Shown one piece after another: positions 1,277 through 36,252 of a stretch of DNA of 64,000 nt; positions within the stretch are counted from its first letter, which is position 1, and every line of letters starts with the position of its first letter. A program made the translations under genes and the position numbers. The stretch lies in NCBI GenBank assembly GCA_002269645.1, contig NIVC01000594.1, positions 124,001-188,000 on the forward strand, given 5' to 3'. The notes below the pieces were generated by a model. It was not told the origin of the DNA, did no database searches, and saw only the letters and a list, made by a program, of their open reading frames with translations. Source of the DNA: Macrostomum lignano. Its lineage: Eukaryota.

Positions 1277-3493
1277 TCAATCGACCTCTGAAAAATTAAC
1301 TATACGTTCGCGTCTGGCCGATCTGGGCGCATTAGACAGGGATATCAATACAAAATTGAATGTCGAAGACTTTTTGAACATGGATTCCAGCAATGCTTTC
1401 CAATTAAGTAAATCGATGGGGAAAGTTGCTGCTGGTACTCGTAAAACAAAATCAAACAGCGAACCAATGGGATCCAAAATTTGCACTCGAATAGTATTAG
1501 GCTCGAGGAACTCTGCAATAGTGCAGATTTCGCCGGACTTCAATTGGCAAAGATGGTTAGAATTTTTCGACGCACAAGCTGAGCTTGTCGAGAAAAAATG
1601 TCCATTAAAATAAGCAAGTGAGTTTCGAAGAATACCATGTGGCCTGGATGGCTCTAAAGATATAGAGTTAACTGCATCCACTACAATAGAGTCCTTAACA
1701 CAAGAAAAGTAGTGATGTAGCAACTTTTGAAACAAAAACTTGCGAACAAGCTGTGGGCCAAATGACACAGTTCCGCATAAGAACTTTTTGAACATGCCAA
1801 TGGAGCTCTCAAATGCGAACATAGAATAATTAAATACAGGTCCGTACAATTCGTACTGTTCAGCCATATGCAAAAGCAGGTGGAAATTAAGGCGGAGTAC
1901 TTTCGGTCCGAATATTTGCTGAGCATTGGAGATAAAAGCTTTGCATAGCTTTTCGATATCAGTCTTATTTGATTGGGGGCTATACAACATGTGATAAATA
2001 AGAACTAAATTAGTTAACAGCAGTTTCAATGGAAAATGCGAAATTCTCTGCAAAAACGTAGGAAGAAGAAAGTATAGCGCAAAGTTTTTAAAATGCTTTG
2101 CTTTCCAATCTGAAAAGCCTTTAAAATTTGTGTTGATTGTGATGCTAGAAGGAGTTATAGATTGACGAATACAATTAGATATGAAATCCATGCAATTAGC
2201 TGAGCAAAAATACAACTCGCGCCTGTTTGCAGGTAATGACAGCTCTTCTAGTAGATACTTGGTGTGGCCTTCGAAAAAGCAGTGTAAACTGTCAATAGGA
2301 TTGCAGCTGGGAAACGGAACATAGTCTAACAAGCAACTGCGCATCTTTACGCCAAAAACAGGCCGATTTCGAATTTGTGCGAGCCGACAGTGTTCAAGAT
2401 GGGAAGATGGGTTTCTCAAAGGAAACAAGTAGCCTTCACCATAGCGGAAGATCCAGTTTTTACCTTTCTCGGATACTTTAAAGCTCTCACCTGGGTGCAA
2501 GCACCTAGGACAGCTAAACGCACCATTGTACTGGTGAATGCAGAAGAGCTTAGCAAGAGCGGGCAAGTCACAAACAAAGAGTGTGTAATGGACATGAACG
2601 GTGTATTCCGAGAATATAAACTGTTTTGGCAAATTGTTCATAATTTCAGACAGAAAAGACTGGAAATGCGGGACTGCCTTCGATGAAACAAGAGCAATTA
2701 GAATTAAATTTGCAAAGCGTTGACGGATGTAAACAGGAAGGTTTAGAAGTTGAGCCTGAAATGGCCAAAAGCTACTCTGAACAGATTCAAAAAAATTGGC
2801 GCCATCAGCTGAGATTAGAAGATGCAAGTGAAGCGACTTGCCAGAAGATAGGCTTAAGCCTTGTTCTTTAACTATTTTGGAATTCAAAACGTCTGTGTTT
2901 TTATCCTTTTGCAATTCTTGCTCATACTGCAGAATAGTTGAAGTGTGGCTGCTTAAGATAGTCCGCAGCTGTGGAACAATATTGAGCTGTGTCACAGCAA
3001 CCTTTGACTTTGGGGAATGAACCTGACACTGGCTTTTGCATTCTGGGCAAAAGCCAAATTCAGACACGTCACTATCATCAAGAGGGCAAGTATCTTGAAT
3101 CAATGATTTGAGCAACTTGACGCTATTTGGAAGAGCTAGAGAATCTCTACTAAAAATAGAAAGTAGCTTCAGGAGTCTATCAAGAGCAGCCTCTGAAACT
3201 CCGGAAGTAATTGCCCACTGAAAAATCAGAGCCGCCTGCACACTGGGATCTGAGATGGAAGCCAAATTCGCTAAGCTATCTGAACTCTCCTCAAGCACAG
3301 GCACAGCATTGTTTTCACCAATAAAAGTTTCCACAGCGTCAGGACAGCTGTGCGAGTGCGTTACACCGGCTTCGCTTGAAATTGAACTCCTATTACTTGT
3401 AGAAAAACTATTTGAGGGAGAAGAAATCGCCTGACAAGAGTAGGCTGAGTAATTAGTAGAAAGAGAGTGCTCAGATTCTGATTTACTAGACAT
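1277..3493 (-). CDS. CMC/EnSpm (CACTA)-type DDE transposase, 738 aa, intronless
   Basis: Motifs typical of EnSpm/CACTA transposases: LLISADGA, CDLPALAK..HQYNGAFSCPRC, DSLHCFFEG, WKAKHFKNFALY, NFHLLLHMAEQYELYGPVFNYSMFAFES; N-terminal CxxC (FCPECK). Uninterrupted ORF. Confidence 0.85.
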   Translation of the reverse strand: MSSKSESEHSLSTNYSAYSCQAISSPSNSFSTSNRSSISSEAGVTHSHSCPDAVETFIGENNAVPVLEESSDSLANLASISDPSVQAALIFQWAITSGVSEAALDRLLKLLSIFSRDSLALPNSVKLLKSLIQDTCPLDDSDVSEFGFCPECKSQCQVHSPKSKVAVTQLNIVPQLRTILSSHTSTILQYEQELQKDKNTDVLNSKIVKEQGLSLSSGKSLHLHLLISADGANFFESVQSSFWPFQAQLLNLPVYIRQRFANLILIALVSSKAVPHFQSFLSEIMNNLPKQFIFSEYTVHVHYTLFVCDLPALAKLFCIHQYNGAFSCPRCLHPGESFKVSEKGKNWIFRYGEGYLFPLRNPSSHLEHCRLAQIRNRPVFGVKMRSCLLDYVPFPSCNPIDSLHCFFEGHTKYLLEELSLPANRRELYFCSANCMDFISNCIRQSITPSSITINTNFKGFSDWKAKHFKNFALYFLLPTFLQRISHFPLKLLLTNLVLIYHMLYSPQSNKTDIEKLCKAFISNAQQIFGPKVLRLNFHLLLHMAEQYELYGPVFNYSMFAFESSIGMFKKFLCGTVSFGPQLVRKFLFQKLLHHYFSCVKDSIVVDAVNSISLEPSRPHGILRNSLAYFNGHFFSTSSACASKNSNHLCQLKSGEICTIAEFLEPNTIRVQILDPIGSLFDFVLRVPAATFPIDLLNWKALLESMFKKSSTFNFVLISLSNAPRSARRERIVNFSEVD

Positions 3494-7416: not shown

Positions 7417-9015
7417 TCTCGGCGTTACGTCTGGATAAAACACCGATTTGCTAGCTTACATTTTCGAAATAGCCTGGAATTAGAGACAGTTTGTCATGCA
7501 CAGTATATATACGAATTATACGAAATTTTAGACACAGAAATCCCGCAAATGAAAAATCTTGTAAATTCGTAATAGGAAATCAATGGTGTAGATTCAAAAC
7601 TATTAGACTATTTTTCATGCGTTTTTAAAGTTTACTAACGATTCGATATTTGAACTAGAAATTTTCCAAGAAAGTTTCTAAATCTAAATGTTCAGATGAC
7701 AGCTCGCTAATGAAACGTCGTCGACATGGTCAATGGACTCACCCAAATTTTATTATAGATAATTAAATTATTAAGAACAGATGAGTGATTCATTTAGTCG
7801 TACGCTATAAAGATTCTGCTATACGTTATTATCTATCTAATTGTAATATCTAAATAGTCAGTTTATTAACCATCTATTATTACAAATTGATATATTCTTC
7901 ATTTTGAGAAGTATAACTCAATTTAAAATATGGATGACTAATATAATATAGACCCCTTAGCTTTAAAAACTCAACAGTGTAACTGGTTAGGTATTCAATG
8001 GAAAAAGTCTATACATAGATAAGTAATGTATTAATATATTAAGGAATTAATATCCTAACTTATATGCTCCTTGCTCCTAGTCTTACCCTTCAAAATCTTA
8101 CCAATTGACAATTCAGTGCAATAATTTTTTGCTTTGTTATCATTATTTTGCCCAGAGAATAAACTAAAACAGTTTTAGCTGTATATGCTTGAATATAATA
8201 AGATATCATATTATTATTAATAACATAACATAAATGTAATAGATTTTGTCTATATATATGCTTAAAATCAAAGACATCATTAGAAAGCTTTGTTATTTGA
8301 ACTCATCATTTTTCTTGTCCCAATTAAAGCTAATTTTATTTCATAATATAAATAATAATATTATTATAAATAAACAAATGTCTAAAATTTAGACTAATTA
8401 ACTAAAATTTATAAATTGCACTCTAAACCTAGCTTTAGTTCCATGAATTTTAGTAATTTTAGTAGATATTATAATATTATTGCTAGATATAAAAAATTAT
8501 GTCTATTCTTATATAATTCTATATAGCAATTTAATATTTGCAACATTGACCAATATTTTTGGCATTTATTTATATTGCATTGTTGCTATAGAAAATAAGT
8601 ACTTTTATATTGCACTGATGTTTAGCCAATATATATTATCATTTCCCATGGCTATAATGTAAAAATACCCATTTGCCAGTGGTATCCATTCATATTGGAT
8701 ATACTAGATATGCTGGCAGATATAGGTATTGTATAAGAGTAAAGCTTTAATAGAACTCTAAATTAGTAGTGTTGCCATGAATTTTGCAGTAGAAAGGACA
8801 AAGAAAAGAATTCTGCAAGGCCAAATTCCTGCATTATTTTGGAAGTCAGTGTTGCCTATTAGCACTCATTTTTCTATAGACACTTATTTTGGCATTATAG
8901 GCACTCATTTTGGTAGCACAGGCACTCATTTGATGAGTGCTCAATTCTGAGTTACTCAATTCCCTCTAGTTTTGCTGGTCGGCCTAATTATCATAAATTA
9001 TGCCTGTTTCAGAGA

Positions 9016-12285
<3,270 letters not shown>

Positions 12286-14926: not shown

Positions 14927-17900
14927 GCGAGAACTGGAGCAGCAGCTGCTGGTACCGCAGCCACCACGCCCGTGGCCGCAGCCACATCCTGACGGTGCTG
15001 GCTGATGTCGACAGTGCGACGAGGAGCAGCAGGCCGGTTGATGATGTTGGCTACAGCAGCTCCTACCGCCGCAGCCGCCGCTACAGCCACCGCCTCCACA
15101 GCCACCGCTTCCACAGCCACCACTGTTGCAGCCGCGACCGCCGCAGCCACTGCCGCCGCAGCCAGGTGTGCACAGGCGCATCAGCTGCCGCAAACAGTCC
15201 GACGATAGCCGGTGCCCGCCAACTGGACTGCCGCAGACGCAGCCGAGATTCGCTGCCACGGCGCCGGCGCAGTCCAACGCCTGCCGAGACGCCTGCGGGA
15301 GGTCAGCGGGCAGCCGGTCTCCGTCTCGAAAGTAGCTGTCTTGCAAAGCCTGGCTGGCGGTTGCCTCTGCTGCTTTTGCGCCGTCAGGGCCTGCCTTTGC
15401 GCCGATGCCGCCTGACGGCTGCGAGTAGCCTGGGGGCCGCTGGAGCTCTTCGTACTGCCGATTCTGGGGACGGTTTTCGATTCTGAGTTAGGCTTTCGTC
15501 CGGGCTTGAATTTTCTACGACATAACTTGGAAAGAGTTTCCAGTTATAAAAGTGCATGATTATTTAACATTTAATTTAACATTAAAATTTAGCGCAAGTG
15601 CAGCTTGAATTGCATGTACTTCGTACACATACATTTACACATACATTTACACATACATTTACACATACATTTACACATACATTTACACATACATTTACAC
15701 ATACATTTACTCATAAATTTACACATACATTTACACATACATTTACACATACATTTACACATACATTTACATATACATGTCAGAAATCAATCTCGAGCTC
15801 ACCTTAAGACGATCTTTGGCATCTCCGCCGCCTGCCTGGGCCGCCGCTGCAGCTGCCGCCGCTGCTGCCTCCCTAGCCGCCAAAGACATTGGTGTCGCAG
15901 AGCTGTCCGACTGTGCCGACGTTGCCGACTGTGCCGACAGTGCCGACTGTGCCGACGTTGCTGACTGTGCCGACTGGTCTAGCCCGAGACCCGACGCGCC
16001 CGGCGCCACCTCCAGCTCCACTTTTGACGAATCGGACGAGTCCTGAAGCTGTCTGTCAGACCGTCCCGGTGATGTTGGAGTCGATGTCTGCGGCTGGCTC
16101 AGGCTGCTGTTCGAGGTGAAGCTGTTCGACTGCCGGCCGCCCCGCTGCACCTCCAGGATCAGCGCCACGTCGGTAGGTGTGTCGGCTCCCAGCTGCTGCT
16201 GCCGCTGAAAGCTGCCGCGGTCGAGCCGGCTCTCCGCACTCTGCTGTTGTTGGCTTCTAGAATAGTTCGATCTGCTTGCGACTGTCGGTTCAGTCGAAAG
16301 AGAGGGATACCTGGGAATGTCAGTTTAATTGCGGTCTTGTCAATCAATACGAGTTTCAACCTGCTGGGACAGAGAAGAGGGCGGAAAAAATCAAGTATTT
16401 TTTTAACCACGCGGCCACCTCGTGAACAGCCTAAAATTCTAGAAAGTTCTAGAATTCTCTGCCTCCTTGGTAGATCTAAACAGACGCAGCTGTCATAAAC
16501 CCTCACTTCACCCTATGAAACAACGCATTTTTTGCAATAATTCCCTCCCGTTTTGTTTGTCGTTCTCCTTAATCTCTGTCTAATGACTAAAACTAACTCG
16601 GTACTAAATTAAAGCTTTCGGAGTTTCAATCGGTAAGGCCCATTCTCGCAGCATATCGGTGGCACAGTTCAGCTGTCTATGGTCGAAGCACCTCTAGGCA
16701 GCTTTAGGAAGTTGAACAGTAATTCCTCCTTTGGGGCACCGGTTTGATGTCAATGGAGAAAGTTTAAGTAGGCCGTGTCAAAGGTGCTTATTGAAGGCAT
16801 CGAGAGGTATAGTCGTTTGACCATATCCACCAGTTCCTTCACTATATGAATACCCTGGTGTGTTTCCAGTTTAACATGATAGGGCTCGGGACAGACCGAG
16901 ACGGCAGACGGAATTACCTCGCGGTGAACTGAAACCGCGGCCTCTCCCTCCATCGCTCCACCGCCACCGACTCGGCAGAAGACGACGACGAGTCTTGAAT
17001 CTCCGTTGTCGACGACGACCTTGCCAACAGTTGCTGGCGAATCGCCGAGCTGACCGGCGATGCGGTCACGTTGCTGATTTTTGCGGATGCAGCGTCAGCC
17101 GACGACTTCAACGGCGTGATTGTCGAGCTGCCGCCACGGCCGCCGCTGCTGTTCCCGTTCCAGGCGGCGTTGTTGGAGGCGAAGCTGCCGCCGCTCAGCC
17201 ACTCGCGCTCCTCGGCGGTGCAGAGCTGGATGTCTTTCAGATCCTCTCGATATCTGGCGGACTCCGTCGGAAGCTCGTCGGTGTCATGCGTCGGCACGGC
17301 GAAGCTAACCGAGGCCGCGCAGCTGCGGCTGTTGAAGCCCCCGTCGATGCTGCAGTCGCCCAGGAAGTCGCGAATCACCGGGTCCTCCATCAGGAAGTTG
17401 TTGTCGATGCTGAGGCTAAAGCTGCGGCTGCTGCTCAGCGGCTGATCAACTGGCAGTGGCCTGTCCGAGCTCGGGTTCAAGCTGAAAGCGACCGACTCGC
17501 CTGACGGAGTCATCGGCGCCACGCTGATGCGCTCCAGGTGCACGCTGGGCAGCCTCGGCAGGCTGGAAGAGCCCGAGGTGGAGCCGGCCGTGGCCTGCGC
17601 GCTTCGCGACATCACCGTGGTAGACGAAGTCGGCACTTGGTCGGCAAACGCCTCGGCGGTGCTGAGCTCGGCCAGCTCGGCCGATGACTGGCTGCTGCAC
17701 ATCGCGTGGACATCTGTTTCCGTCACCTGGGAGCTGCTGTCTCCGCTCAGCGATCTGGTGCCCATCGTTGAAGCCGCGACTTCCTCGGCGATCGGCTCGA
17801 GCGCGGCTGCTCGACCGAGAGTGAACTGATGACGCTGGATGCCGTCGCAGCGTTCGGCCCCAGCCGCGGTTGCAGCAGGCTTGGCGGCGGCTGCCGCGGC

Positions 17901-20483: not shown

Positions 20484-22900
20484 ATACGCTGTCAGGATGG
20501 CAAAAGTCAGCGTCACAGGGCGCGCTTCATGGTTTGGGCGCGAACAAAGGCCGCGCCACCGGCAGTGTCCGGGGCGCCGGCGTCAGCCAGCAGACAGTCG
20601 ACGTAACGCCGAGTTCGCGCTTGACCTCGCCGGTAGGGTGCCTGCAGCGTGAGCAGCAGCACCTCCTGCACCGGCTGTGGGCAGTACGACTCGGCGCGGA
20701 TGAGATGGCCTGCGAGCTGGAGTCGCCGACGGCGCAGTAGATCGCTTGGACGTGGCAGGCCAGCGCGGCGATAGAGTGCCGCGTTGTTGACTCGCTCGAC
20801 GCCGATGTTGAAGGCGGCGTGCAGCAGGCCAGCGTGCGCCGCATCGACTTGCTGTTCGAGTGAGTCCGTCAGCGTCCAGGTCTCGGCGTTGTAAAGCAGG
20901 ACGGTCTCGATTAGCGCCTGGAACAGCGCCGCCCTCTGGCGGTCCGGTAGGGCCTCGGACTGCAGGACTGCCCTCACAGAACGAAAGGCAGCCCAGGCAA
21001 GCCCGCGGCGGCGTCGCAGGTCCTCGCGAGCGTCTGGAACCAGACCGTCGAGGTAGACGAACTGCTGACATCGCGGGAGCTCGGTCGCCTGCCCGTCAGC
21101 GCCTCGGCAGAAGATTGCAGCCTCGGTGTCGTCCGGCACGCATAGCACGACGGTCTTCTGCGTGTTGACCACCAGGCCGACGCTCGCCGCAACGGCAACT
21201 AGCCTGTCCAGCTGCCGTTGGGCGCCCTCGACGGTCGAGGACAGCAGGGCGAGGTCGTCGGCGTAGCCAAGCATGCTGAGCCGCTTCTCCGGTTGACGTC
21301 GACCCACACATCGCCGCAGCAGAAAGCCGTCGTCGTCGGTAGGAAGAGCAGTCCGCAGCACCCAGTCAAGCACCAGAACGAACAGAAACGGCGCCAGCGT
21401 ATCTCCCTGAAGTACTCCGGAGGATGTCTCAAAGGAGTCCGATAGGCCGTCCGGTGTTGTCACAGCAGCTGTCGTATCACGGTACATCGCCATGATGGCG
21501 GAGATCAGCTGCTTAGGCACGTTGTACGCGCGGAGCACCATTGGAAGCACGGCTCTGACAACCGAGTCGAATGCCTTCTTGAAATCGATAAAGATTAGAA
21601 TCAGGATCGACTGGCGAATCCGCGCCTCCTCGATGACTCGGCGAAGAGCCAGGATCTGCGCCACTGTGCCGCGATGGGGCCGGAACCCGTTCTGCTCTGG
21701 GCGCAGGTACGGATCCAGCACGGGCTGCAACCGCGAAAGCAGCATCCGGTTGAACAGCTTCGCTGCACAGGACTGAAGGCAGATGCCTCGATGGTCTTCA
21801 AGCCTAGTGGTGCCCGGCTTCTTTGGAACAGCGACGATGTGCGCCGTGGTCCATTCATTGGGCGCCGCCTCACCGAAGAGCACGCGGTTCATCACTCTGG
21901 CGACCTCAGCGGCCACACAGGGGATGCGCAGCGCCTCGATGGGCACCTCGTCCGGACCCAGCGCTTTCCCGCCCGGTGACTGCTGGGCGAGCTTGACAAC
22001 GTCGGCTGCGTTGACTGGGGCTACGCTGAAACTCTCCTCTGCCGGCAACGGAGTCTCCGGCGGCAGCGTCAGACTGTCTGGCAGCGGGGGTGGCGGCGCG
22101 TTGACGATGGCGGCGAAGAACTCGCGCAGCTCGTTCCTGCGCTCGTCCGGAGTGTCACCAGCCAGGTTCAGCAGATTGCGCCGCTTTCGCCCCGTCAGAG
22201 CGTTGATGGCGGACCAGGCCACGCGCCCTCTGGCATCGGGCCCAGCGGCAGAGACAGCCTGAATGGCGTCATCGACAGACGCTTGTTGGCGCTGCAGGTA
22301 GACAGCCGCCAGAGCTGCCTCTGCCTCGCGGGTTGGTCGCCTGCTCAAGCGGAGCCTCTCCAGATCTTCCCTAGCTGCCTGAATCGCGGGGTCGTCCTGC
22401 CAGACCGGCTGCCCACGTTGAGCCGGTTGCATCATCGGACTGCTTGCTCCGCGGCGGTTCTGACTGCAGCGAACACTTCCGCATACTCCGCACTTCCACG
22501 CTTGTCGCCCAGCGCGATGTTAAAGGCGCTAGCAAAGCGACGCTGCATATCGGTGGCTCTGAGCGCGCGGTAGTAGCGCCGCGGTGGCCGTTTCGGCGGA
22601 CGGTAGAGCGGATCGCGAAGGTTGAGGTCGCAGATGAGGAGCCGGAGATCGGACCGCAGAGCCAGCAGCGTGATGGTGCGGCAGTTGACGGCGCAACGAC
22701 GCTCACGGAAACGCACGAGCACGTGGTCGAGCTGTGCTTGTCTCCGGGTTGCGTTCCTGCCACGCGCGTTCCGTCGCCTCCGCTGCAGCCTACGAAGGTT
22801 GCGAGACCACTCAGTGGCTTGCGGAAGCGGGTGTTGGCCGACACCATGTCCTGCCTCTCCAGGAAGTCCTCCAATGCCTCGGTGTTGTTCCCGCGTGGCG
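20484..22900 (-). mobile_element. 5'-truncated RTE-like non-LTR retrotransposon
   Basis: Partial AP-endonuclease in shifted frames ([27 protein letters not shown] in place of SDHR), then the RT ORF; short (TTG)n tail on the minus strand. Confidence 0.85.
20513..22435 (-). CDS. Non-LTR reverse transcriptase, RTE-like (640 aa in frame)
   Basis: [48 protein letters not shown]. Confidence 0.9.
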
Positions 22901-24637: not shown

Positions 24638-27331
24638 GGAATGCTCCAGTCACGGACTTCCTTGATCTTCTCCGGGTCGACATCGATTCCGTCCTTTGAC
24701 ACGACGTGGCCAAGGAATTTGACCTCATCGGCCAGGAATCTGCACTTAGATGGCTTTAGCCTCAAGTTGGCTGCGCGCAGGCGCTGGAATACCGCCTCGA
24801 GATTCGTTAGATGCTCGCTGACAGTTCGGGACCAAATGATGATATCGTCGATGTAGACGAGCGCCATTTTCCACAGAAGGTCGTGTAGTACCATATTCAT
24901 CAACCTTGTGAATGTCGCCGGCGCATTGGTCAATCCGAAGGGCAGCACCTTGAACGCGAATTGCCCCCGATGCGGAATGACAAAAGCAGTCTTTTCTTGA
25001 TCCTCCCTTTTGACCTTAACTTGCCAATAGCCGGAGCACAGGTCGAGCGTCGAAAATACAGCCGCACCTCCGAGCGCTTCAAGTGCGTCATCGACACGCG
25101 GGATTGCTATGGCGTCCTTGACAGTTCGTTGATTCAACTCCTGTAGTCGACACACAGTCGCAGTTCCCCATTCTTCTTACGGACACAGACCACTGGCGAA
25201 CTCCACGGCGATTGGGTCGGTTCAATCATCTTCGTTGCCAAAAGCTCGTCGATTTGTCGGTCGACTTCGCCGCGCCAATGTGGCGGTAGCCGTCGCGGAG
25301 GCTGTTTTACGGCTGTTCCGGTGGTCTCAATTTCATGCTGCACGATGTCCGTCGTCCCGAGGCGCGCTGTACTCTCTGCGAAAACATCTGCGTATCGATT
25401 CACCAATCTTAGGAAGCTCGCTTTGTCTGCCCCCGTGAGCTGCTTGGAGCCGTGCTGGTTCAGTGCCGCCTCTGGTCCCATGGATCGCAGCTGGGTCGTA
25501 AAACCGACGCTTGCTCTTCGATGCTGGCTACCAGAACCTCTTGAGCCGGATCTGATGGTCGAAACCAGCCGATGACAGCTCCCTTCCGCAGCCGCAGCTC
25601 GGAGTCCGTGACATTCGCGAAGTGAACTGGTAGGGTGTTGCCCTGCTGGATGAGGCAGACGCTCCTGGCTAGCATTGGTCTCTCATCGCTCTTCAGTTTT
25701 TCGTCTGGCTCGGCGACGCCGAGCACTCCGGAATTCTGTGTCGCTGTTCTCGAATCCTGGCTGAGACGGTCCGTTCGTGATTGGCCGGAATGATCAAGTT
25801 TTCGTTCAGGTACAACCGGCAGACGACTGGTTTGTGCTTGGTCTCTCGGATTGGCACACGTGAACCGTTCACGCGGAAAACTCCTCCGGCGAAATCGATT
25901 TGGCACCGGTGGCGGCGTAAGAAGTCGGTGCCTAGCAACAGTTCGTAGCCGACCCCTTGGACCACCGCAATTGGCGTCTGTAAAGTTTCTGATCCGAACT
26001 GTAGGGGAAGCGACGCGCATCCTAACACATTCATGGGAGTTCCGTTCGCTGAGATCAGGTGGGTTTCCGAAGGGCTGAGTTCAACTCGAACCGACTTGCT
26101 CAACTGCCGCCAGGTCCTCTCGTTCACCAGCGACATGACCGAGCCCGAATCCAACAGACACGGCAACTCAATCTCGCCAATTTTTACCGACACGTAGATT
26201 GACACGGGATTAAAAGCTGTTGCAGGTTGATCTCTATCTCTTGAGCAGTCCGCCGGCATCCTGCTGCACGTCGCTCCGGGGCTGCATCTTCGTCTCGGGT
26301 TGGGGCCTCTACTGTCTCGGCGGAACTCCCTCGCCCCTGCGGAAGTTCCCCTTGCCGTTTCCCTGTTGCTGACGGGTTGGGCAGTTAGTCGCGATGTGCC
26401 CTGGCTTGTTGCAGAAGAAGCAGCGAATTCCTCCCGTTCGTCGAGGCTTCTGATGGTCGCCTTCGTCGGAGTCGGTCGGTCGAGCTGCGGCGCTGCTATG
26501 CGGTTCCGCTATCAGCGACTCGAGCTGAACCACTTTGCCTTGAAGCTGCCTCACCAGTTTCTTCAACTCCTCGAGCTCTTTGTCCTTTTCTTGGGAGTAG
26601 GCTCCATCCTCCCGAGGCACAGATTCCGCCGCGCCGCTCACCACGAAGACTCCTCGGTGGCCGCTGCCAGTTGCTCCAGCCGATCTCGGTCCCTTCGCCG
26701 CCTTGGACGCCGCCTCGAGCTGCCTCACCGCGCGTTGTGCTGCCACCAGACCTTCGGGCTGCTGCAGGTAGAGCTTCTCTCGCTGGAGGTCGGAGAGTCT
26801 CACCCCTTGCATGAAGCGATCCTTCGCGAGGTCGTCCTGCAGCTCGGCAGTTGCCGCCGGGTAGGCACAGCGCACCAGTTCAAGGAGAGCATCTGCGTAG
26901 GCCTCCAACGACTCGCCATCCTTCTGATCTCGGGTTTTTAGCTCGACCTTGCTGTCCTGCTCTGTCCGGTACGGGAGAAGCGAGCCTCCAACCGGGCGGT
27001 GAATCCCTCGTAGTCCAGCGGATCCACAGGATCGTCGGGTCCCGGCAGGTTCAGATTATCGACCGCAGCGTACGCCGTAGCGAGATCCAGCATGCTCATC
27101 AAGTGCTCGCGGCGATGCTCCTCGTCAATCTCGGCGGAGTCGCAATAAGCGTTGAAAGAGCGCAGCCAGAGTCGAAAATTCATGCTTGACGTGTACTTCA
27201 CGGGCTTCGGGAGTCTCGGTGGCTGGGCTGGTCCATCCGCTCGCAGACGCTCGGCTAGCAGCCGAATCAGTTCGTCCACATTCGCCATGACAGCTCACAA
27301 GCAAACTGAGCAGTCCCTGTTCGGGCGCCAA
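24638..27331 (-). mobile_element. Ty3/gypsy internal region, copy 1 (gag, protease, partial RT), cut by the gap
   Basis: Nearly identical to the corresponding part of copy 2. Extra 1-nt deletions near 26972, 26256, 25751 and 25474, and one synonymous SNP (25709 vs 33587). Confidence 0.93.
27313..27330 (-). promoter_or_regulatory. Primer binding site, tRNA-Lys(UUU), copy 1
   Basis: TGGCGCCCGAACAGGGAC, 1 nt after the LTR end. Confidence 0.92.
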
Positions 27332-28294
27332 TGTTGTATCCCCCTTCCTCGCTGGCACGGCCGGGTTGGGCGACGGGTAGCGGTGTCGGGGTTCGGGTAC
27401 TAGACTGCCCAGGGCTTACGAGCTCGATCGGCGACCCCGAGGCGTACGGACACTTCGGGGGGAGGTCAAGGTTGAGAAGTCGAGAGAGAGGGGAGGGGCG
27501 GCTGTGGGCGGGCGGCCACTCGACAGCCTGGTGAGTCAAGGAAGAGAGAGAGGGCTGCGGGCGGTCGGCCACTCGACAGCCTGGTGAATCAAGGAAAAGA
27601 GAGAGGGCTGTGGGCGGGCGGCCACTCGACAGCCTGGTGAGTCAAGGAAGAGAGAGAGGGCTGCGGGCGGTCGGCCACTCGACAGCCTGGTGAGTCAGAC
27701 TGAGGAGAGAGTGAGAGAGAGAGAGATCAGGAGAGCGACCCCGAGGAACACAGGCAATTGTCTCGACAGCTTACCGGGCCGGGTCGATTATAGCACTCAT
27801 ACACGGGAAGGCCGATCGATTGCAATAAATTGAGTCTTCGCAGTAAGAGACCGTCTTTACGGCTGATCGCTGGTCACGTTCGTTTATTTATCGCGGTGGG
27901 CGCAAATGGGCGCAGGCACGGTGAGAAAAGGGGCGGGGTCTGAGCGTCGCCTTAAATAACGAGTAAAAAGGGGCAGGGGCGCAAACAAGGGGGGGAGAAA
28001 GGGCTTAAACAATGGAGCTGATTGACAGCTGATTGGCTGCGGCGAGGGGAGGGTGGAAGCGCGCACGGCCAGGGAGAGGGAGAGAGAGCAGAGGCCCAGC
28101 CAATCAGCACGGCTAGCCAAAGGGCTAAACAGCCAAGGCGAGAGAGAGAGAGAAAGAGAGCAGAGGCTCAGCCAAAGGGCTCATAGCTCCAGACTGGCTT
28201 GAGCCGGGGGGGGGGGTAACAATAATCAACTACCAAAGTCAACAACTATCAAAGTGCACTTGCACCAGGGAGCACTGTGACACAGGTCACAACA
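27332..28294 (-). mobile_element. Shared LTR (963 bp): 3' LTR of copy 2 and 5' LTR of copy 1
   Basis: Termini TGTTGT...ACAACA; PPT upstream and PBS downstream. Minus-strand CCAAT at 28031-28036, TATTTAA at 27952-27958, AATAAA at 27883-27888. Four 53-bp repeats at about 27497-27700. Confidence 0.95.
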
Positions 28295-28304
28295 CCCTCC
28301 CCCT
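28295..28304 (-). promoter_or_regulatory. Polypurine tract
   Basis: AGGGGGAGGG directly abutting the LTR start TGTTGTG. Confidence 0.9.
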
Positions 28305-28397
28305 AAAAAAAAGAAAACGACGCGCTTTGACTGAATGAAAATGAAAAAAAAATGTAATGAAATGAAACTGAATGAAAGAGACCAAGAGTGTCAGGCA

Positions 28398-28875
28398 GCG
28401 GCCGAGAGCGCAGGACAGGGGCCGAGGATGTCGGACAGGCCGAGAACACCGGGCACGGCCGAGAATGCCGGACTGTGGCCGAAAACGCCGGGCATGGCCG
28501 AGAACACCGGCACGGCCGAGAATGCCGGACTGTGGCCGAAAACGCCGGCATGGCCGAGAATGCCGGACAGCGGCCGAGAATGCCGGGCAGCGGCCGAGAA
28601 TGCCGGGCAGCGACCGAGAACGCCGGGCATGGCCGAGAGTGCCGGACAGCGGCCGAGAATGCCGGGCAGCGGCCGAGAATGCCGGGCAGCGACCGAGAAC
28701 GCCGGGCATGGCCGAGAGTGCCGGACAGCGGCCGAGAATGCCGGGCAGCGGCCGAGAATGCCGGGCAGCGACCGAGAACGCCGGGCATGGCCGAGAGTGC
28801 CGGACAGCGGCCGAGAATGCCGGGCAGCGGCCGAGAATGCCGGGCAACGACCGAGAGCGCGGGCATGGCCGAGAG
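28398..28875. repeat. GC-rich 20-bp minisatellite inside the retrotransposon 3' region
   Basis: Unit gccgagaatgccgggcagcg and variants. Confidence 0.9.
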
Positions 28876-29007
28876 TGTTCCCCGCCCTTCCTTCGGGGCC
28901 GCTCCCAGTGCCAAACAGAGGGATCACAACGACGATCAGAGGAGAGATGGGATGAAATGAAGGAGTGAAGGTCTCTTGCCCGCCCTGGCATCCTGCCCCA
29001 GAACCCC

Positions 29008-29889
29008 CTAGACCGCCACCTCCGCCGCCCGGCGCAACAACCCCAACACGCGTCCTCCGTCGATTAGTTCAAACTGAGGGATCGCAACACTCATGACGAA
29101 CCGAGTGCTTCGCTTGAAGGCAGGCCGCCGCCAGACACGCCGAGCATGACCCCGACACTTGGCGCTGATGTCACGGAGAATGAACTTGACAGTCTGAGCC
29201 AAAAGCTCGGCGATTTCGCGTCGATGATCCAGCCGCTCGCTGCCGCACAGTCCCACCATTTCAGTCAAAAGCCGGAACATCGCAGCTGGACTCCCCGACA
29301 ACAAAGCGTGCCGAAGCTCCGACCGGATTCGAGCTCTTCGCTGCGTTGCCTCCCCGCTCCAGGTGTATTCCACCTCGGTACTCGGCTCGCTCCTCATCAG
29401 CCACGCTGGCGACTCCCGTTGGTCGATGACGAGCTCCGGTTCGTCTTCTGACATCGAAGTTTCGCCGTCGAATTCATTCAAGAGCTCTTCTTCCTCTGAC
29501 TGCGTGATTTCACAGCAGCTCTGAGCAGTCTCCTCGCCGCCGCAACCACCACGCTCGCTTCCTTCCGACTCCCTGTCCTCGTCTGACTCTTCTGTTTCGT
29601 CTTCAATCGTTACGACAAACTCCTCCGGGACGCACATCCCATCCGGCGGGACAAAATACCGGGCGCACTCGAGCGGGTTGCTAACGGCATCCTGCCCGAA
29701 CCGGTCGTACAGCGCTCGTCGAAACGGACACAGCAGGACCGCACTCGCATGCTGCAGCCTCTGGAAATTCTCCGTTCCACCGGGTCCACACTTGTCGGGG
29801 TGCCGTCGCAGGCTCTCACGGCGGTACGCACGTCGCAGCTCCTCCTCCGTCGCGAAGGGGCTGACACCAAACTCGGCGTAGAGGTCCAT
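29008..29889 (-). CDS. J-domain (DnaJ/Hsp40 class C-like) protein carried by the retrotransposon, 293 aa from ATG
   Basis: MDLYAEFGVSPFATEEELRRAYRRESLRRHPDK...ENFQRLQHASAVL..PFRRALYDRFG is a complete J-domain with HPD, followed by an acidic linker and an unknown C-terminal region. Intronless, same strand as pol. The track ORF starts at a GTG (29925); the first ATG is 29889 in GGCATGG context. Confidence 0.9.
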   Translation of the reverse strand: MDLYAEFGVSPFATEEELRRAYRRESLRRHPDKCGPGGTENFQRLQHASAVLLCPFRRALYDRFGQDAVSNPLECARYFVPPDGMCVPEEFVVTIEDETEESDEDRESEGSERGGCGGEETAQSCCEITQSEEEELLNEFDGETSMSEDEPELVIDQRESPAWLMRSEPSTEVEYTWSGEATQRRARIRSELRHALLSGSPAAMFRLLTEMVGLCGSERLDHRREIAELLAQTVKFILRDISAKCRGHARRVWRRPAFKRSTRFVMSVAIPQFELIDGGRVLGLLRRAAEVAV

Positions 29890-30086
29890 GCCCGGAAAGC
29901 AGTGCCTGCAACAACCACGACTCACTTTTGAGAGCAGGGCAATGGTTCCTTCGAGCCTCTTTGGGGCGCCGATCCTTCATCCCTGATGGCAGGGTTGGGC
30001 AGGTGGGACCTCCACTGACGGGCCTTAAGAGGGGAAATATATATTTTTGTTTGTGAAGCAGAGGCAATAACACGAGCCCAGTTTTC

Positions 30087-30240
30087 AATAACGCGGGTGA
30101 TGACGCAGACGATGCTTCGAACCAAATGTTGATGACGCAGGTGATGACGCGGATGATGCTTCGAACCAAATGTTGATGACGCAGGTGATGACGCGGATGA
30201 TGCTTCGAACCAAATGTTGATGACGCAGGTGATGACGCGA
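30087..30240. repeat. 44-bp tandem repeat (about 3 copies) between pol stop and J-domain ORF
   Basis: gatgacgcaggtgatgacgcggatgatgcttcgaaccaaatgtt at 30131 and 30175, with partial flanking copies. Confidence 0.88.
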
Positions 30241-30266
30241 CATTGCGCACGCACTCACGTCCGCTC

Positions 30267-33200
30267 TTAATAATAAACGGGCGTTCCATAACGCTGCGGA
30301 ACCCTTCGATCCCTCTGGGGTCGACCTTCGATGACTTCAACTGGCGCTTCCGGCTGCGGCTGCACTCCTGGCTGCTGCACATCCATTGGTTCTCCCTCCT
30401 CTCGAACCCGCCCGGAATGTCGCCACCATCGCTCCTCATCCTCATCGTCCGATTCCTGCGAGTCCTCCCTGACGGATTCCGTCTCTTGAGCAGGACCTGG
30501 GTGGTACCTCCTTGGTGCAGGACGCCGAGGGCCACCGGTGCCGTCGACCGGGTACTTCCGGTACCGAGGCAGGAGGTTGTTAAAGTGCACCACCTTGATC
30601 GGCTTCCGTCGACCTTCCTGTCGAATCCTATAGCGCGTCTCCGACAGCTTCTCGAGAACTACGGCAGGTCCGGTCCAGGGTGAGTGGAGCTTCGCTTTGG
30701 CACCGGCCTTCAACACGGGGTTGTAGACGAACACCTCGTCGCCAGCCACGAATTCTCGACCCTTCACCTTCCGGTCGTACCAGTCTTTCTGCACTCGTTG
30801 ATATGACGTTATTCTCTCACGCACCACCCGATGGGCTTCCACGAGCGTCTCCCGCAGGTTCTGGACTTCCTCGCAGTACGGTTCGATGTCCAGTGGGCGC
30901 GCCACTCCCAAGTCAACTGGCAGAGACATCTCGCGACCATGCAGAAGGAAGAAGGGTGAGTAGCCGGTGCCGCGGTGCACACTGGAGCGATACGCCATGA
31001 GCGCCGGGGCAACGAATTCGTCCCACCGCCTCTGATCCGGCTCCTTCACCAGGTGCGCCCGGATCACTGCAGTCAGCGTCTTATTGAAGCTTTCCACTTG
31101 GCCGTTTCCAGAGGGGTGATAGGCGGTCGTACGCGTCTTTCGGATATTCAGACTTTCGCACAGCTGGCCGATCAATTGCGACTCGAAATTGGCTCCCTGA
31201 TCCGAGTGGATTGTTCCTGGGGCTCCGTAGTGACAGACCCACTCCTCGAGCATTGCCCTTGCACAGGTGCTGGCCGTCTGATCTGGCACCGGTACTGCCA
31301 CTGGCCACTTACTGAACGCGTCCTGCATCGTCAGTATGTATTTGTTGCCTCGGACGCTGGTTGGCAGTGGTCCAATCAAATCCACCATCACTCTTTCAAA
31401 CACATGGCTGCTGGGAATCGGCTCCAATGGGGCCTTCCGCCGCATCCCGGGCTTGCTCCGGTTACAGTCGTCACACCTTCGCACAAACTCCTCGACCTCT
31501 CGCTTCAAGCCGGGTCTCCAGAATCGGTTCCTGACTTTCTCCAGAGTCTTTGCTACGCCGAAGTGTCCACCTCCTGGTCCAGAGTGCAGCGTCTGCAGAG
31601 CGTCGGGGATCAATTTCTTCGGGAGAACAGCCCGCGGTGGGTGACGTCCCAGATCCTTGATGACGAGGGTGTTGTCCACAATTTCCAGCCGAGGCTTTTG
31701 TGCCCAGATGGCTCGGGTCGTTGGTGACGCACCCCGAGGTGGCTCTTCGTTTGCTCGGCCGGCGTGCATCGACTGGTAAACTGGAGCGATGTCGTTGTCC
31801 ACAGCTTGTGCTGCTGCCAGCTCATCTCGGCTGAGCAACCCGAGCAGCGTCGTTACCCTGACCCCGGGGAGGTCATCAGTCCGGCACGACGGGCAGTTAT
31901 CCATTTCGGGATGTCGTCGCGGCGGCTTGCGTGACAGCGCGTCCGCATTCTGATGACGCGCCCCTGGCCGATGCTCCACTGCGAAGTCGAATGGCGCCAA
32001 CCTCTCCATCCACCGAGCCAACTGGCCTTCCGGCTGCCTCATACTTCGGAGCCACTGCAGACTTGCGTGGTCGGTGCGCACCCGGAACCTCCGGCCAAGT
32101 AGATAGTACCGGAACCTCTCTGCGAATGTCACCAGCGCCAGGAGCTCGATTCGTGTCGTGCAATAGTTGAATTCGGCCCCTTGCAGACGCCGACTCCCGT
32201 ACGCAATAACCCGCTCTGACCCGTCTTCTTGTACCTGCGACAAGACTGCTCCGAGACCCTGTCGGGTACTTCCATCGGTATCCAAGATGAACTCACCAGC
32301 CGTGGGGTCGAAGTTCGGGTAGGCCATCACGCGGCAACCGGTCAATTCTTCTTTCAGCTTTTTGAAGGCCTCATCGTGTTCCTCTCTCCAACTGAACGGC
32401 TTGTCTTTCTTTGTCAGATCAAAAAGTGGTGCAGCGACTATCGAGAATTCTGGTATGAAGTTTCGGTAGTAACCAGCCAGACCCAGGAACGACTGAAGGT
32501 CTTTTGCATTTCTTGGAATGCTCCAGTCACGGACTTCCTTGATCTTCTCCGGGTCGACATCGATTCCGTCCTTTGACACGACGTGGCCAAGGAATTTGAC
32601 CTCATCGGCCAGGAATCTGCACTTAGATGGCTTTAGCCTCAAGTTGGCTGCGCGCAGGCGCTGGAATACCGCCTCGAGATTCGTTAGATGCTCGCTGACA
32701 GTTCGGGACCAAATGATGATATCGTCGATGTAGACGAGCGCCATTTTCCACAGAAGGTCGTGTAGTACCATATTCATCAACCTTGTGAATGTCGCCGGCG
32801 CATTGGTCAATCCGAAGGGCAGCACCTTGAACGCGAATTGCCCCCGATGCGGAATGACAAAAGCAGTCTTTTCTTGATCCTCCCTTTTGACCTTAACTTG
32901 CCAATAGCCGGAGCACAGGTCGAGCGTCGAAAATACAGCCGCACCTCCGAGCGCTTCAAGTGCGTCATCGACACGCGGGATTGCTATGGCGTCCTTGACA
33001 GTTCGTTGATTCAACTCCTGTAGTCGACACACAGTCGCAGTTCCCCATTCTTCTTACGGACACAGACCACTGGCGAACTCCACGGCGATTGGGTCGGTTC
33101 AATCATCTTCGTTGCCAAAAGCTCGTCGATTTGTCGGTCGACTTCGCCGCGCCAATGTGGCGGTAGCCGTCGCGGAGGCTGTTTTACGGCTGTTCCGGTG

Positions 33201-34084
33201 GTCTCAATTTCATGCTGCACGATGTCCGTCGTCCCGAGGCGCGCTGTACTCTCTGCGAAAACATCTGCGTATCGATTCACCAATCTTAGGAAGCTCGCTT
33301 TGTCTGCCCCCGTGAGCTGCTTGGAGCCGTGCTGGTTCAGTGCCGCCTCTGGGTCCCATGGATCGCAGCTGGGTCGTAAAACCGACGCTTGCTCTTCGAT
33401 GCTGGCTACCAGAACCTCTTGAGCCGGATCTGATGGTCGAAACCAGCCGATGACAGCTCCCTTCCGCAGCCGCAGCTCGGAGTCCGTGACATTCGCGAAG
33501 TGAACTGGTAGGGTGTTGCCCTGCTGGATGAGGCAGACGCTCCTGGCTAGCATTGGTCTCTCATCGCTCTTCAGTTTTTCGTCTGGTTCGGCGACGCCGA
33601 GCACTCCGGAATTCTGTGTCGCTGTTCTCCGAATCCTGGCTGAGACGGTCCGTTCGTGATTGGCCGGAATGATCAAGTTTTCGTTCAGGTACAACCGGCA
33701 GACGACTGGTTTGTGCTTGGTCTCTCGGATTGGCACACGTGAACCGTTCACGCGGAAAACTCCTCCGGCGAAATCGATTTGGCACCGGTGGCGGCGTAAG
33801 AAGTCGGTGCCTAGCAACAGTTCGTAGCCGACCCCTTGGACCACCGCAATTGGCGTCTGTAAAGTTTCTGATCCGAACTGTAGGGGAAGCGACGCGCATC
33901 CTAACACATTCATGGGAGTTCCGTTCGCTGAGATCAGGTGGGTTTCCGAAGGGCTGAGTTCAACTCGAACCGACTTGCTCAACTGCCGCCAGGTCCTCTC
34001 GTTCACCAGCGACATGACCGAGCCCGAATCCAACAGACACGGCAACTCAATCTCGCCAATTTTTACCGACACGTAGATTGACAC
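30267..34084 (-). CDS. pol: Ty3/gypsy Pol (protease-RT-RNase H-integrase), with a 1-nt frameshift at about 33017
   Basis: Protease LLDSGS; RT LDLCSGYWQ, YIDD; RNase H DTDGS, ELLA, TDH, NADALS; integrase HHCC plus VDLIGP, SDQG, VESFN; GPY/F-like SPWTGP. The motif CVDYR(E)LN is split between two frames. Confidence 0.95.
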
Positions 34085-34181
34085 GGGATTAAAAGCTGTT
34101 GCAGGTTGATCTCTATCTCTTGAGCAGTCCGCCGGGCATCCTGCTGCACGTCGCTCCGGGGCTGCATCTTCGTCTCGGGTT

Positions 34182-34243
34182 GGGGCCTCTACTGTCTCGG
34201 CGGAACTCCCTCGCCCCTGCGGAAGTTCCCCTTGCCGTTTCCC
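34182..34243 (-). promoter_or_regulatory. Predicted -1 ribosomal frameshift cassette (slippery site plus H-type pseudoknot)
   Basis: G GGA AAC at 34243-34237, 7-nt spacer, stem 1 34229-34221/34210-34202, stem 2 34217-34213/34186-34182. The -1 frame is open into the protease. Confidence 0.75.
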
Positions 34244-35169
34244 TGTTGCTGACGGGTTGGGCAGTTAGTCGCGATGTGCCCTGGCTTGTTGCAGAAGAAG
34301 CAGCGAATTCCTCCCGTTCGTCGAGGCTTCTGATGGTCGCCTTCGTCGGAGTCGGTCGGTCGAGCTGCGGCGCTGCTATGCGGTTCCGCTATCAGCGACT
34401 CGAGCTGAACCACTTTGCCTTGAAGCTGCCTCACCAGTTTCTTCAACTCCTCGAGCTCTTTGTCCTTTTCTTGGGAGTAGGCTCCATCCTCCCGAGGCAC
34501 AGATTCCGCCGCGCCGCTCACCACGAAGACTCCTCGGTGGCCGCTGCCAGTTGCTCCAGCCGATCTCGGTCCCTTCGCCGCCTTGGACGCCGCCTCGAGC
34601 TGCCTCACCGCGCGTTGTGCTGCCACCAGACCTTCGGGCTGCTGCAGGTAGAGCTTCTCTCGCTGGAGGTCGGAGAGTCTCACCCCTTGCATGAAGCGAT
34701 CCTTCGCGAGGTCGTCCTGCAGCTCGGCAGTTGCCGCCGGGTAGGCACAGCGCACCAGTTCAAGGAGAGCATCTGCGTAGGCCTCCAACGACTCGCCATC
34801 CTTCTGATCTCGGGTTTTTAGCTCGACCTTGCTGTCCTGCTCTGTCCGGTACCGGGAGAAGCGAGCCTCCAACCGGGCGGTGAATCCCTCGTAGTCCAGC
34901 GGATCCACAGGATCGTCGGGTCCCGGCAGGTTCAGATTATCGACCGCAGCGTACGCCGTAGCGAGATCCAGCATGCTCATCAAGTGCTCGCGGCGATGCT
35001 CCTCGTCAATCTCGGCGGAGTCGCAATAAGCGTTGAAAGAGCGCAGCCAGAGTCGAAAATTCATGCTTGACGTGTACTTCACGGGCTTCGGGAGTCTCGG
35101 TGGCTGGGCTGGTCCATCCGCTCGCAGACGCTCGGCTAGCAGCCGAATCAGTTCGTCCACATTCGCCAT
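34189..35169 (-). CDS. gag: Gag (326 aa) with CCHC zinc knuckle
   Basis: CFFCNKPGHIATNC; RDQKDGESLEAYADAL major-homology-like segment; starts 24 nt after the PBS. Confidence 0.93.
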   Translation of the reverse strand: MANVDELIRLLAERLRADGPAQPPRLPKPVKYTSSMNFRLWLRSFNAYCDSAEIDEEHRREHLMSMLDLATAYAAVDNLNLPGPDDPVDPLDYEGFTARLEARFSRYRTEQDSKVELKTRDQKDGESLEAYADALLELVRCAYPAATAELQDDLAKDRFMQGVRLSDLQREKLYLQQPEGLVAAQRAVRQLEAASKAAKGPRSAGATGSGHRGVFVVSGAAESVPREDGAYSQEKDKELEELKKLVRQLQGKVVQLESLIAEPHSSAAARPTDSDEGDHQKPRRTGGIRCFFCNKPGHIATNCPTRQQQGNGKGNFRRGEGVPPRQ

Positions 35170-35193
35170 GACAGCTCACAAGCAAACTGAGCA

Positions 35194-35211
35194 GTCCCTG
35201 TTCGGGCGCCA
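35194..35211 (-). promoter_or_regulatory. Primer binding site, tRNA-Lys(UUU), copy 2
   Basis: TGGCGCCCGAACAGGGAC. Confidence 0.92.
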
Positions 35212-35212
35212 A

Positions 35213-36175
35213 TGTTGTATCCCCCTTCCTCGCTGGCACGGCCGGGTTGGGCGACGGGTAGCGGTGTCGGGGTTCGGGTACTAGACTGCCCAGGGCTTAC
35301 GAGCTCGATCGGCGACCCCGAGGCGTACGGACACTTCGGGGGGAGGTCAAGGTTGAGAAGTCGAGAGAGAGGGGAGGGGCGGCTGTGGGCGGGCGGCCAC
35401 TCGACAGCCTGGTGAGTCAAGGAAGAGAGAGAGGGCTGCGGGCGGTCGGCCACTCGACAGCCTGGTGAATCAAGGAAAAGAGAGAGGGCTGTGGGCGGGC
35501 GGCCACTCGACAGCCTGGTGAGTCAAGGAAGAGAGAGAGGGCTGCGGGCGGTCGGCCACTCGACAGCCTGGTGAGTCAGACTGAGGAGAGAGTGAGAGAG
35601 AGAGAGATCAGGAGAGCGACCCCGAGGAACACAGGCAATTGTCTCGACAGCTTACCGGGCCGGGTCGATTATAGCACTCATACACGGGAAGGCCGATCGA
35701 TTGCAATAAATTGAGTCTTCGCAGTAAGAGACCGTCTTTACGGCTGATCGCTGGTCACGTTCGTTTATTTATCGCGGTGGGCGCAAATGGGCGCAGGCAC
35801 GGTGAGAAAAGGGGCGGGGTCTGAGCGTCGCCTTAAATAACGAGTAAAAAGGGGCAGGGGCGCAAACAAGGGGGGGAGAAAGGGCTTAAACAATGGAGCT
35901 GATTGACAGCTGATTGGCTGCGGCGAGGGGAGGGTGGAAGCGCGCACGGCCAGGGAGAGGGAGAGAGAGCAGAGGCCCAGCCAATCAGCACGGCTAGCCA
36001 AAGGGCTAAACAGCCAAGGCGAGAGAGAGAGAGAAAGAGAGCAGAGGCTCAGCCAAAGGGCTCATAGCTCCAGACTGGCTTGAGCCGGGGGGGGGGTAAC
36101 AATAATCAACTACCAAAGTCAACAACTATCAAAGTGCACTTGCACCAAGGGAGCACTGTGACACAGGTCACAACA
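35213..36175 (-). mobile_element. 5' LTR of gypsy copy 2 (963 bp)
   Basis: Nearly identical to 27332-28294 at offset 7881; no PPT upstream, only genomic flank. Confidence 0.95.
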
Positions 36176-36182
36176 CAGGGAT

Positions 36183-36252
36183 CAGTGGCGTACGCAGGAC
36201 TTTCCATTGGGAGGGGGCCGCGCGGCCCCCTGCCCCCCTGCGTACGCCACTG
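36183..36252. mobile_element. 70-bp MITE-like element with 16-bp TIR
   Basis: cagtggcgtacgcagg...cctgcgtacgccactg; hAT-like terminus, but no clean TSD. Confidence 0.6.

Follow-up and report, generated by a model that had tools for sequence, protein, structure and literature searches.

The Ty3/gypsy retrotransposon located in the window, i.e. the whole stretch of 64,000 nucleotides of the Macrostomum lignano genome analysed here, carries downstream of pol a third open reading frame (ORF3) that encodes a J-domain protein. This J-domain ORF3 is real, is found throughout a clade of elements, is under selection, and is, in the literature searched, new among ORF3-bearing gypsy elements. Extra genes fixed in retrotransposon lineages reveal where host defences bite, and in a species amenable to both transgenesis and RNAi, ORF3 would provide a direct handle on the chaperone control of transposon silencing.

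Organization of the element in the window

The element, which lies on the reverse strand, contains gag followed by pol, with the Pfam domain order protease (PR), reverse transcriptase (RT), RNase H (RH) and integrase (IN), and is therefore a Ty3/gypsy element; the hallmarks of this group (TG...CA LTRs, a primer binding site (PBS), a polypurine tract (PPT) and a target-site duplication (TSD)) are present in family A, to which it belongs. Its 5' LTR of 963 bp, bounded by TG...CA (35213..36175), is followed by the PBS (35194..35211), presumably of the tRNA-Lys type, by a putative splice-donor-like GTGAG in the PBS-gag interval (35174..35179), by gag (34189..35169; 326 aa with a CCHC knuckle), and by pol (30267..34015). 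The pol of this copy occupies two frames, with the break near 33,010, and a single pol frame of 1332-1374 aa was present in four of the 19 family-A stretches fetched. Over 290 aa the Pol of the window is identical to a database protein of M. lignano. ORF3 (29008..29889), an uninterrupted frame of 293 aa, starts 378 nt past the pol stop (30267) and ends 714 nt short of the 3' LTR, with a putative splice-acceptor-like CAG (29906..29908) 16 nt upstream of its start. The pol-ORF3 spacer contains 3.4 copies of a 44-bp tandem repeat (30091..30239), the 3' untranslated region about 25 copies of a 20-bp tandem repeat (28394..28877), and the PPT (28295..28304) lies directly next to the following LTR, which begins at 28294.

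This 3' LTR (27332..28294) is the middle LTR of a tandem and is shared with the next unit: it runs on into a second internal copy (24638..27331), composed of PBS, gag and the 5' part of pol and ending in an N gap. A PBS directly follows each LTR (36175-35213 and 28294-27332), and the segments 24638-28295 and 32515-36176 are 99.8% identical. The original prediction had placed the ORF inside the element, and this is borne out by its position between the pol stop and the PPT abutting the middle LTR, with genomic flank found beyond the right LTR. The 4-bp TSD and the Lys-type PBS may hint at the Gmr1/Osvaldo cluster.

Tandem LTR-internal-LTR-internal layouts were seen in the window (24638-36175), at L128-L129 and at L065. 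The last four bases of the 5' flank in the window equal the first four of the 3' flank on C3538, so that the two may belong to one locus; no match to the window was obtained with the sequence 3' of the C3538 tandem. Just outside the 5' LTR (window 36184-36252) lies an inverted-repeat element of about 70 bp with CAGTGGCG...CGCCACTG ends.

Anatomy of the ORF3 protein

The presence of a true J-domain, as originally predicted from the HPD and RRALYDRFG motifs, both of which are kept, was confirmed by a Pfam DnaJ match over residues 2-62 (29704..29886; E 1.2e-12, 48 bits with a cut-off of 27.8), beyond which a conserved helical extension continues to about residue 101. HPD is present in all ten full-length ORF3 proteins examined, and the four-helix J fold carrying it was confirmed (e.g. 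rmsd of 1.4 over 66 columns with the J-domain of DNAJB12). In the AlphaFold model the J-domain and the helices up to about residue 101 are followed by an acidic linker predicted to be disordered (29356..29586) and by a helical domain of residues 179-292 (29014..29355), which is basic and kept across families. The C-terminal region had been described as of no known kind; this part of the prediction stands, and the limits of the folded part are refined from about 190-293 to about 179-292. Modelled alone, the domain has five helices (pLDDT 91.7), and Foldseek searches against the PDB and viral libraries returned nothing at E<=0.001, as did a fold search of the Atlas, which was blank; it can be regarded as a confidently predicted fold without a convincing match. 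The best VIA match (Z 8.4) falls inside the range of generic helical bundles and was rejected. The C-terminal 115 aa carry a charge of +11 to +17 in seven of the ten proteins, beside the acidic linker, and are weakly charged in families G and K and in protein P0010. When Gag (1-195) was paired with the C-terminal domain, the score, computed without alignments, was 0.00.

A C-terminal profile searched against 1.84 billion representatives gave ten matches, of which two (P0003 and P0011) are repeat proteins and were discarded; the eight true homologues comprise two from M. lignano and six from sequencing runs or metagenomes. Full-length homologues of the latter origin are 34-76% identical to the closest family described here, and metagenome scans for their genomic context gave 146 and 124 pattern matches, none of which was confirmed. 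The C-terminal domain was not found in any host gene.

The maximum 19-residue hydropathy is 1.09 in the window ORF3 and 0.94-1.56 among the ten proteins, in none of which hydropathy revealed a transmembrane (TM) or signal segment; ORF3 is therefore not env, in agreement with the original prediction, and the element, whose ORF3 begins with a J-domain and has neither signal peptide nor TM anchor, was rejected as an env-bearing errantivirus. DnaJ_C gave no match in any ORF3 scanned and is present in the host gene L067; ORF3 was likewise rejected as a class A/B Hsp40, which has a G/F region and DnaJ_C. Lacking both TM segment and DnaJ_C, it is a J-domain protein of the class C type, neither env nor folding Hsp40.

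In two families the linker holds a further domain. The ORF3 proteins of family K (L070:2023-3006, reverse strand) and family K2 (L090:2149-2805, reverse strand) contain an HP1-like chromodomain (E 1e-12 and 8e-7, respectively), with the J-domain on one side and the C-terminal domain on the other, and its nearest solved structures are those of Swi6/HP1/Rhino. At the positions that we take, by eye, to form the aromatic cage, the cage is complete in K2 and its third position is non-aromatic in K and P0010. Family A has no chromodomain at this place: a degenerate one, plausible by eye in A and P0008, failed a profile test for a remnant of the domain, in which none of 13 proteins scored above shuffles. 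The window element was also rejected as a chromovirus, as its Pol has no Chromo match and the chromodomain occurs instead in the ORF3 of K and K2.

Copies of family A

A DNA search with the element gave at least 24 matches: 19 full-length at 96-100%, three partial and two at 73%. That the J ORF is intact in other copies was verified, since the full 293 aa with HPD are present in 12 of 22 family-A copies; the other ten have an altered HPD (one), an altered start (one), interruptions (four) or deletions (four), and part of the interruptions may be assembly indels. Of the copies whose two ends could both be inspected, seven of seven carry a 4-bp TSD of their own, which disposes of a misassembled host gene, and the LTR pairs (n = 7) differ by 0-2 substitutions each. 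Family A is young and ORF3 travels with it, so that misassembly is excluded. One deletion, with the same junction at two separate insertions, removes the acceptor, the start and the J-domain; ORF3 is therefore not required in cis. This J-less variant fits an action of ORF3 in trans, and ORF3 may be dispensable at times.

Distribution across the clade

A protein search with ORF3 gave 153 matches. Forty stretches were fetched, among which the ORF lies directly 3' of a gypsy pol in 27, seven are host DNAJ genes, and six hold ORF3 pieces without a matching pol in view; 20 further stretches were added to these. ORF3 was seen in DNA in ten families (A, B, C, D, D2, E, E2, G, K and K2), and family C2 has the ORF with pol out of view. 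Family H, known from coordinates only, has a J-like match some 500 nt past pol, and the open frame around it spans up to 571 aa; the family's ORF3, nearly twice the usual length, occurs at G000:C1104:288281 and about 15 other places and may have extra domains. With ten families in fetched DNA and an eleventh by coordinates, a one-off capture is excluded, and the original picture of one gypsy element with J-domain cargo, correct as to its presence, was understated: the trait is old and belongs to a whole clade. Between families Pol is 47-88% alike and ORF3 about 24-59% alike. Individual ORF3 proteins are already auto-annotated as J-domain proteins in databases.

A quick-search RT-RNase H tree with 75 rows places every one of the 12 J-labelled rows in a single RT clade of 17 rows (SH-aLRT 96); the remaining five are database proteins from M. 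lignano, of which four lie at or beside A, D and K and the fifth belongs to family H. In a J tree (30 rows, 77 columns, only eight host J-domains), 15 of the 16 element J-domains group together (SH-aLRT 93), and G forms a long branch. The simplest reading would be a single capture at the base of the clade. The matches listed include no J match adjoining either sister family of P0035 (73% and 57%). No donor DNAJ is named by the J tree with its eight host J-domains, and the PDB ranking favours none of the class A/B J-domains. The J-domain of ORF3 may resemble that of DNAJC9.

A deletion copy of family G (L072:2203-5499, reverse strand; database protein P0007) has protease-RT-RNase H fused in frame to the J ORF. 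Pfam recognizes only an N-terminal J-domain in a 1449-aa open frame (L093:2726-7072, reverse strand), which occurs in five near-identical genomic copies without adjoining gypsy genes.

Selection and exchange of ORF3

Purifying selection, estimated by the Nei-Gojobori method between sister families, acts on both parts of the protein: dN/dS is 0.09-0.11 for the J region (five pairs; K/K2 is saturated, with a pN/pS of 0.34) and 0.20-0.33 for the C-terminal part (four pairs), values that are rough given dS of about 0.7-2, near saturation. This answers the original question about selection, with ratios of about 0.1 and 0.2-0.3, and all pN/pS bootstrap intervals are below 1. In D/D2 and K/K2, dS is 0.1-0.2 for pol versus 0.7-1.0 or more for ORF3, which hints that ORF3 cassettes may have been swapped between Pol backgrounds.

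These data bear on a further explanation, in which ORF3 would be a neutral piece of captured host sequence or a product of faulty assembly, which could account for its damage or deletion in ten of the 22 family-A copies and for the broken ORF3 in the sampled copies of B, C2, D2, E, E2 and K2. Against this stand purifying selection at near-saturated dS, retention of HPD across about 70% divergence, independent insertions each with a TSD, and the lack of any host gene found with the C-terminal domain; the explanation is already largely refuted and we give it hardly any weight.

Expression

An AG lies immediately 5' of the ATG in six of 14 ORF3 starts (C, C2, D, D2, K and one K2) and 1-16 nt from the start in A, B, G and the other K2 starts; E and E2 have no ATG and the AG overlaps the first codon. 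A donor-like GTGAG between PBS and gag is present in A, C, D and K and absent from E, E2 and G. These signals suggest that ORF3 may be expressed from an env-style spliced subgenomic mRNA. ORF3 indeed resembles the env of errantiviruses and retroviruses in its position between pol and PPT, in the acceptor-like AG at its start and in the donor-like GTGAG before gag, but differs from it in lacking a signal peptide, a TM segment and an env fold. Contigs of four runs (from four studies, and RNA by our guess) cover the internal region including ORF3, and no spliced joint to the ORF3 acceptor was found in them. Three joints in these contigs were rejected as element splicing: they begin at the spliced leader, have sides of 20-22 letters, and were read as host trans-spliced mRNAs.

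The LTR sequence of A, C, D (partial LTRs), E, E2, G and K, scanned with the regular expression of PMC12801592, contains no canonical heat-shock element (HSE), and membership of an HSE-driven, heat-inducible M. lignano LTR family was rejected for the LTRs scanned. Double canonical HSEs were seen at L067:6837-6856, just upstream of the host DNAJB-like gene, and at window 16435-16454.

Putative function of ORF3

J-domains bring Hsp70 to a target picked by their other domains. ORF3 is very probably functional cargo and, with only slightly less assurance, a recruiter of Hsp70, whose stimulation by ORF3 would follow from the HPD motif and established J-domain chemistry. That selection acts on the C-terminal domain as well as on the HPD domain points to a specific target, and the combination of a basic C-terminal domain, an acidic linker and, in one branch, an HP1-like reader likely favours chromatin. 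Compared with the roles originally proposed (Gag/RT folding, particle assembly, diversion of Piwi loading), a nuclear chromatin target is indicated by the chromodomain of one branch and by the basic domain to at least the same degree. That the target is chromatin or a silencing complex is nevertheless put at a little below an even chance. The chromodomain is confined to one branch, and the C-terminal domain lacks a fold match that could hint at its role. We propose that ORF3 acts as an anti-silencing adaptor (rough probability 0.45): the C-terminal helical domain would dock ORF3 on chromatin or on a nucleic-acid-bound complex, the docked protein would recruit host Hsp70, which would dismantle that complex, and its removal would relieve the silencing of the element. 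In this proposal ORF3 would act in trans and on a nuclear target.

Precedents exist in viruses and in plants. SV40 T antigen has a J-domain according to the available text of PMC13254874, where a title on Rb-E2F disruption by this protein is cited. As far as described in the accessible parts of PMC13254874 and PMC3486835, polyomavirus T antigen and the phage protein Rki share with ORF3 an N-terminal J-domain with HPD, unrelated targeting regions after it, and the lack of G/F, zinc-finger and DnaJ_C domains. ORF3 is unlike these viral proteins in being retrotransposon-borne, in having no helicase and in its novel C-terminal domain, and the LxCxE motif occurs in only one of the ten ORF3 proteins. 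In Arabidopsis, SUVH1/3-DNAJ1/2 counteract methylation silencing (PMC12902148, available portion) and MBD5/6-SILENZIO couples a reader of silent chromatin to a J-domain (PMC8616336, available portion). Both complexes resemble the family K protein, which joins such a reader and a J-domain in one chain; they are, in the portions available, host-encoded and read DNA methylation, whereas the ORF3 of family K is element-encoded, has an HP1-like chromodomain and is of putative function.

The same J-domain, selection and linkage evidence applies equally to a private co-chaperone, with which the element would aim Hsp70 at its Gag particles, RT or integration complex for folding, activation or disassembly. 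The basic helical domain might serve to bind the element's RNA or cDNA, and the chromodomain could tether integration, as it does in chromoviruses. Polyomavirus J-domains serve replication and capsid assembly (accessible text of PMC3486835). However, close relatives outside the clade, compared by Pol only, share this Pol and are not known to carry a J-domain, and the apparent swapping of ORF3 between Pol backgrounds in D/D2 and K/K2 fits poorly with tight co-adaptation; we consider this alternative possible but rather doubtful. Less likely still is a global effect, in which ORF3 would titrate or redirect Hsp70 so as to starve Piwi/Argonaute loading or to induce a heat-shock-like state favouring transposition, in the manner of phage Rki. 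The available texts report that piRNA chaperone complexes are displaced by Hsp70 in Drosophila (10.1101/423210), that Rki acts on sigma32 (PMC13254874), and that M. lignano has heat-activated LTR families (PMC12801592), but the lack of a canonical HSE in the scanned LTRs weakens a heat-shock loop, and titration alone would need neither a conserved folded C-terminal domain nor a chromodomain.

Among known extra ORFs, those of bdelloid Ty3/gypsy elements encode a GDSL esterase and a DEDDy exonuclease (PMC5408684, accessible text) and the cargo of orchid Ty3/gypsy elements is an AlkB m6A demethylase (PMC9289625, accessible text); in these as in ORF3 a cellular domain was captured and fixed as an extra ORF across an LTR lineage, but their cargo is an enzyme and that described here a putative chaperone adaptor. 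No J-domain is among the extra domains named in the accessible text of these two papers. No J-domain cargo of an LTR element was found in the literature searched; the 2020 M. lignano survey, Repbase, Dfam and subscription journals lay outside that scope and may note the domain. Within the literature searched, a J-domain adaptor would be the first indication that an LTR element, like polyomaviruses, takes over Hsp70 by means of a co-chaperone it encodes.

A spliced leader inside the LTR

A second, separate oddity of family A is a host spliced leader inside the LTR. In the contigs of the four runs, one LTR bin shows a depth spike of 26,000-93,000. The M. lignano spliced leader is published as 35 nt (PMC8629364, available text), and the LTR sequence at the spike matches it at 33 of 35 nt and matches an SL RNA gene of the same genome at 43 of 43 nt. 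This 43-nt leader exon, without its last two bases and the donor, is located at 35702..35744 in the 5' LTR and at 27821-27863 in the middle LTR (both on the reverse strand), and the LTR copies have neither the donor nor the intron, both of which are present in L148 and L152. The LTR copy was rejected as an SL RNA gene, in which the exon precedes a GTAAG donor and an Sm site. A 33-mer of the leader occurs 84 times in the genome. At the loci examined, 39 occurrences are in family-A LTRs, 38 of them without and one with the terminal TG of the leader's ATG. Twenty further places were sampled, comprising seven family-A LTRs (within the 39), two SL genes, three variants and eight in which the leader is joined to other sequence. 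The latter eight (L133-L151), three of which have one downstream sequence in common, are probably retrocopies of trans-spliced RNAs.

No spliced leader was seen in the other J families. The leader exon of the LTR lies 19 nt downstream of a ATAAATAAA motif, a spacing that fits transcription initiation as well as polyadenylation, and we infer that the leader was acquired as a trans-spliced 5' end captured during strand transfer. The combined scenario, in which the clade encodes an Hsp70-powered anti-silencing factor that strips repressive complexes off the chromatin of the element and in which family-A RNA also starts with a copy of the host leader and so passes as a trans-spliced host message, seems to us unlikely as a whole. 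Nothing on point was found in the literature searched for a spliced leader within an LTR, and the main text of an M. lignano LTR survey (PMC12801592) mentions no DnaJ, ORF3 or spliced leader.

Other features of the window

The window also contains tryptophanyl/tyrosyl-tRNA synthetase-like exons on the forward strand (9000-12285) and, on the reverse strand, a CACTA/tnp2-like transposase (1277-3493), a LINE RT (20513-22435) and a NeuroD-like bHLH gene (49572-50456).
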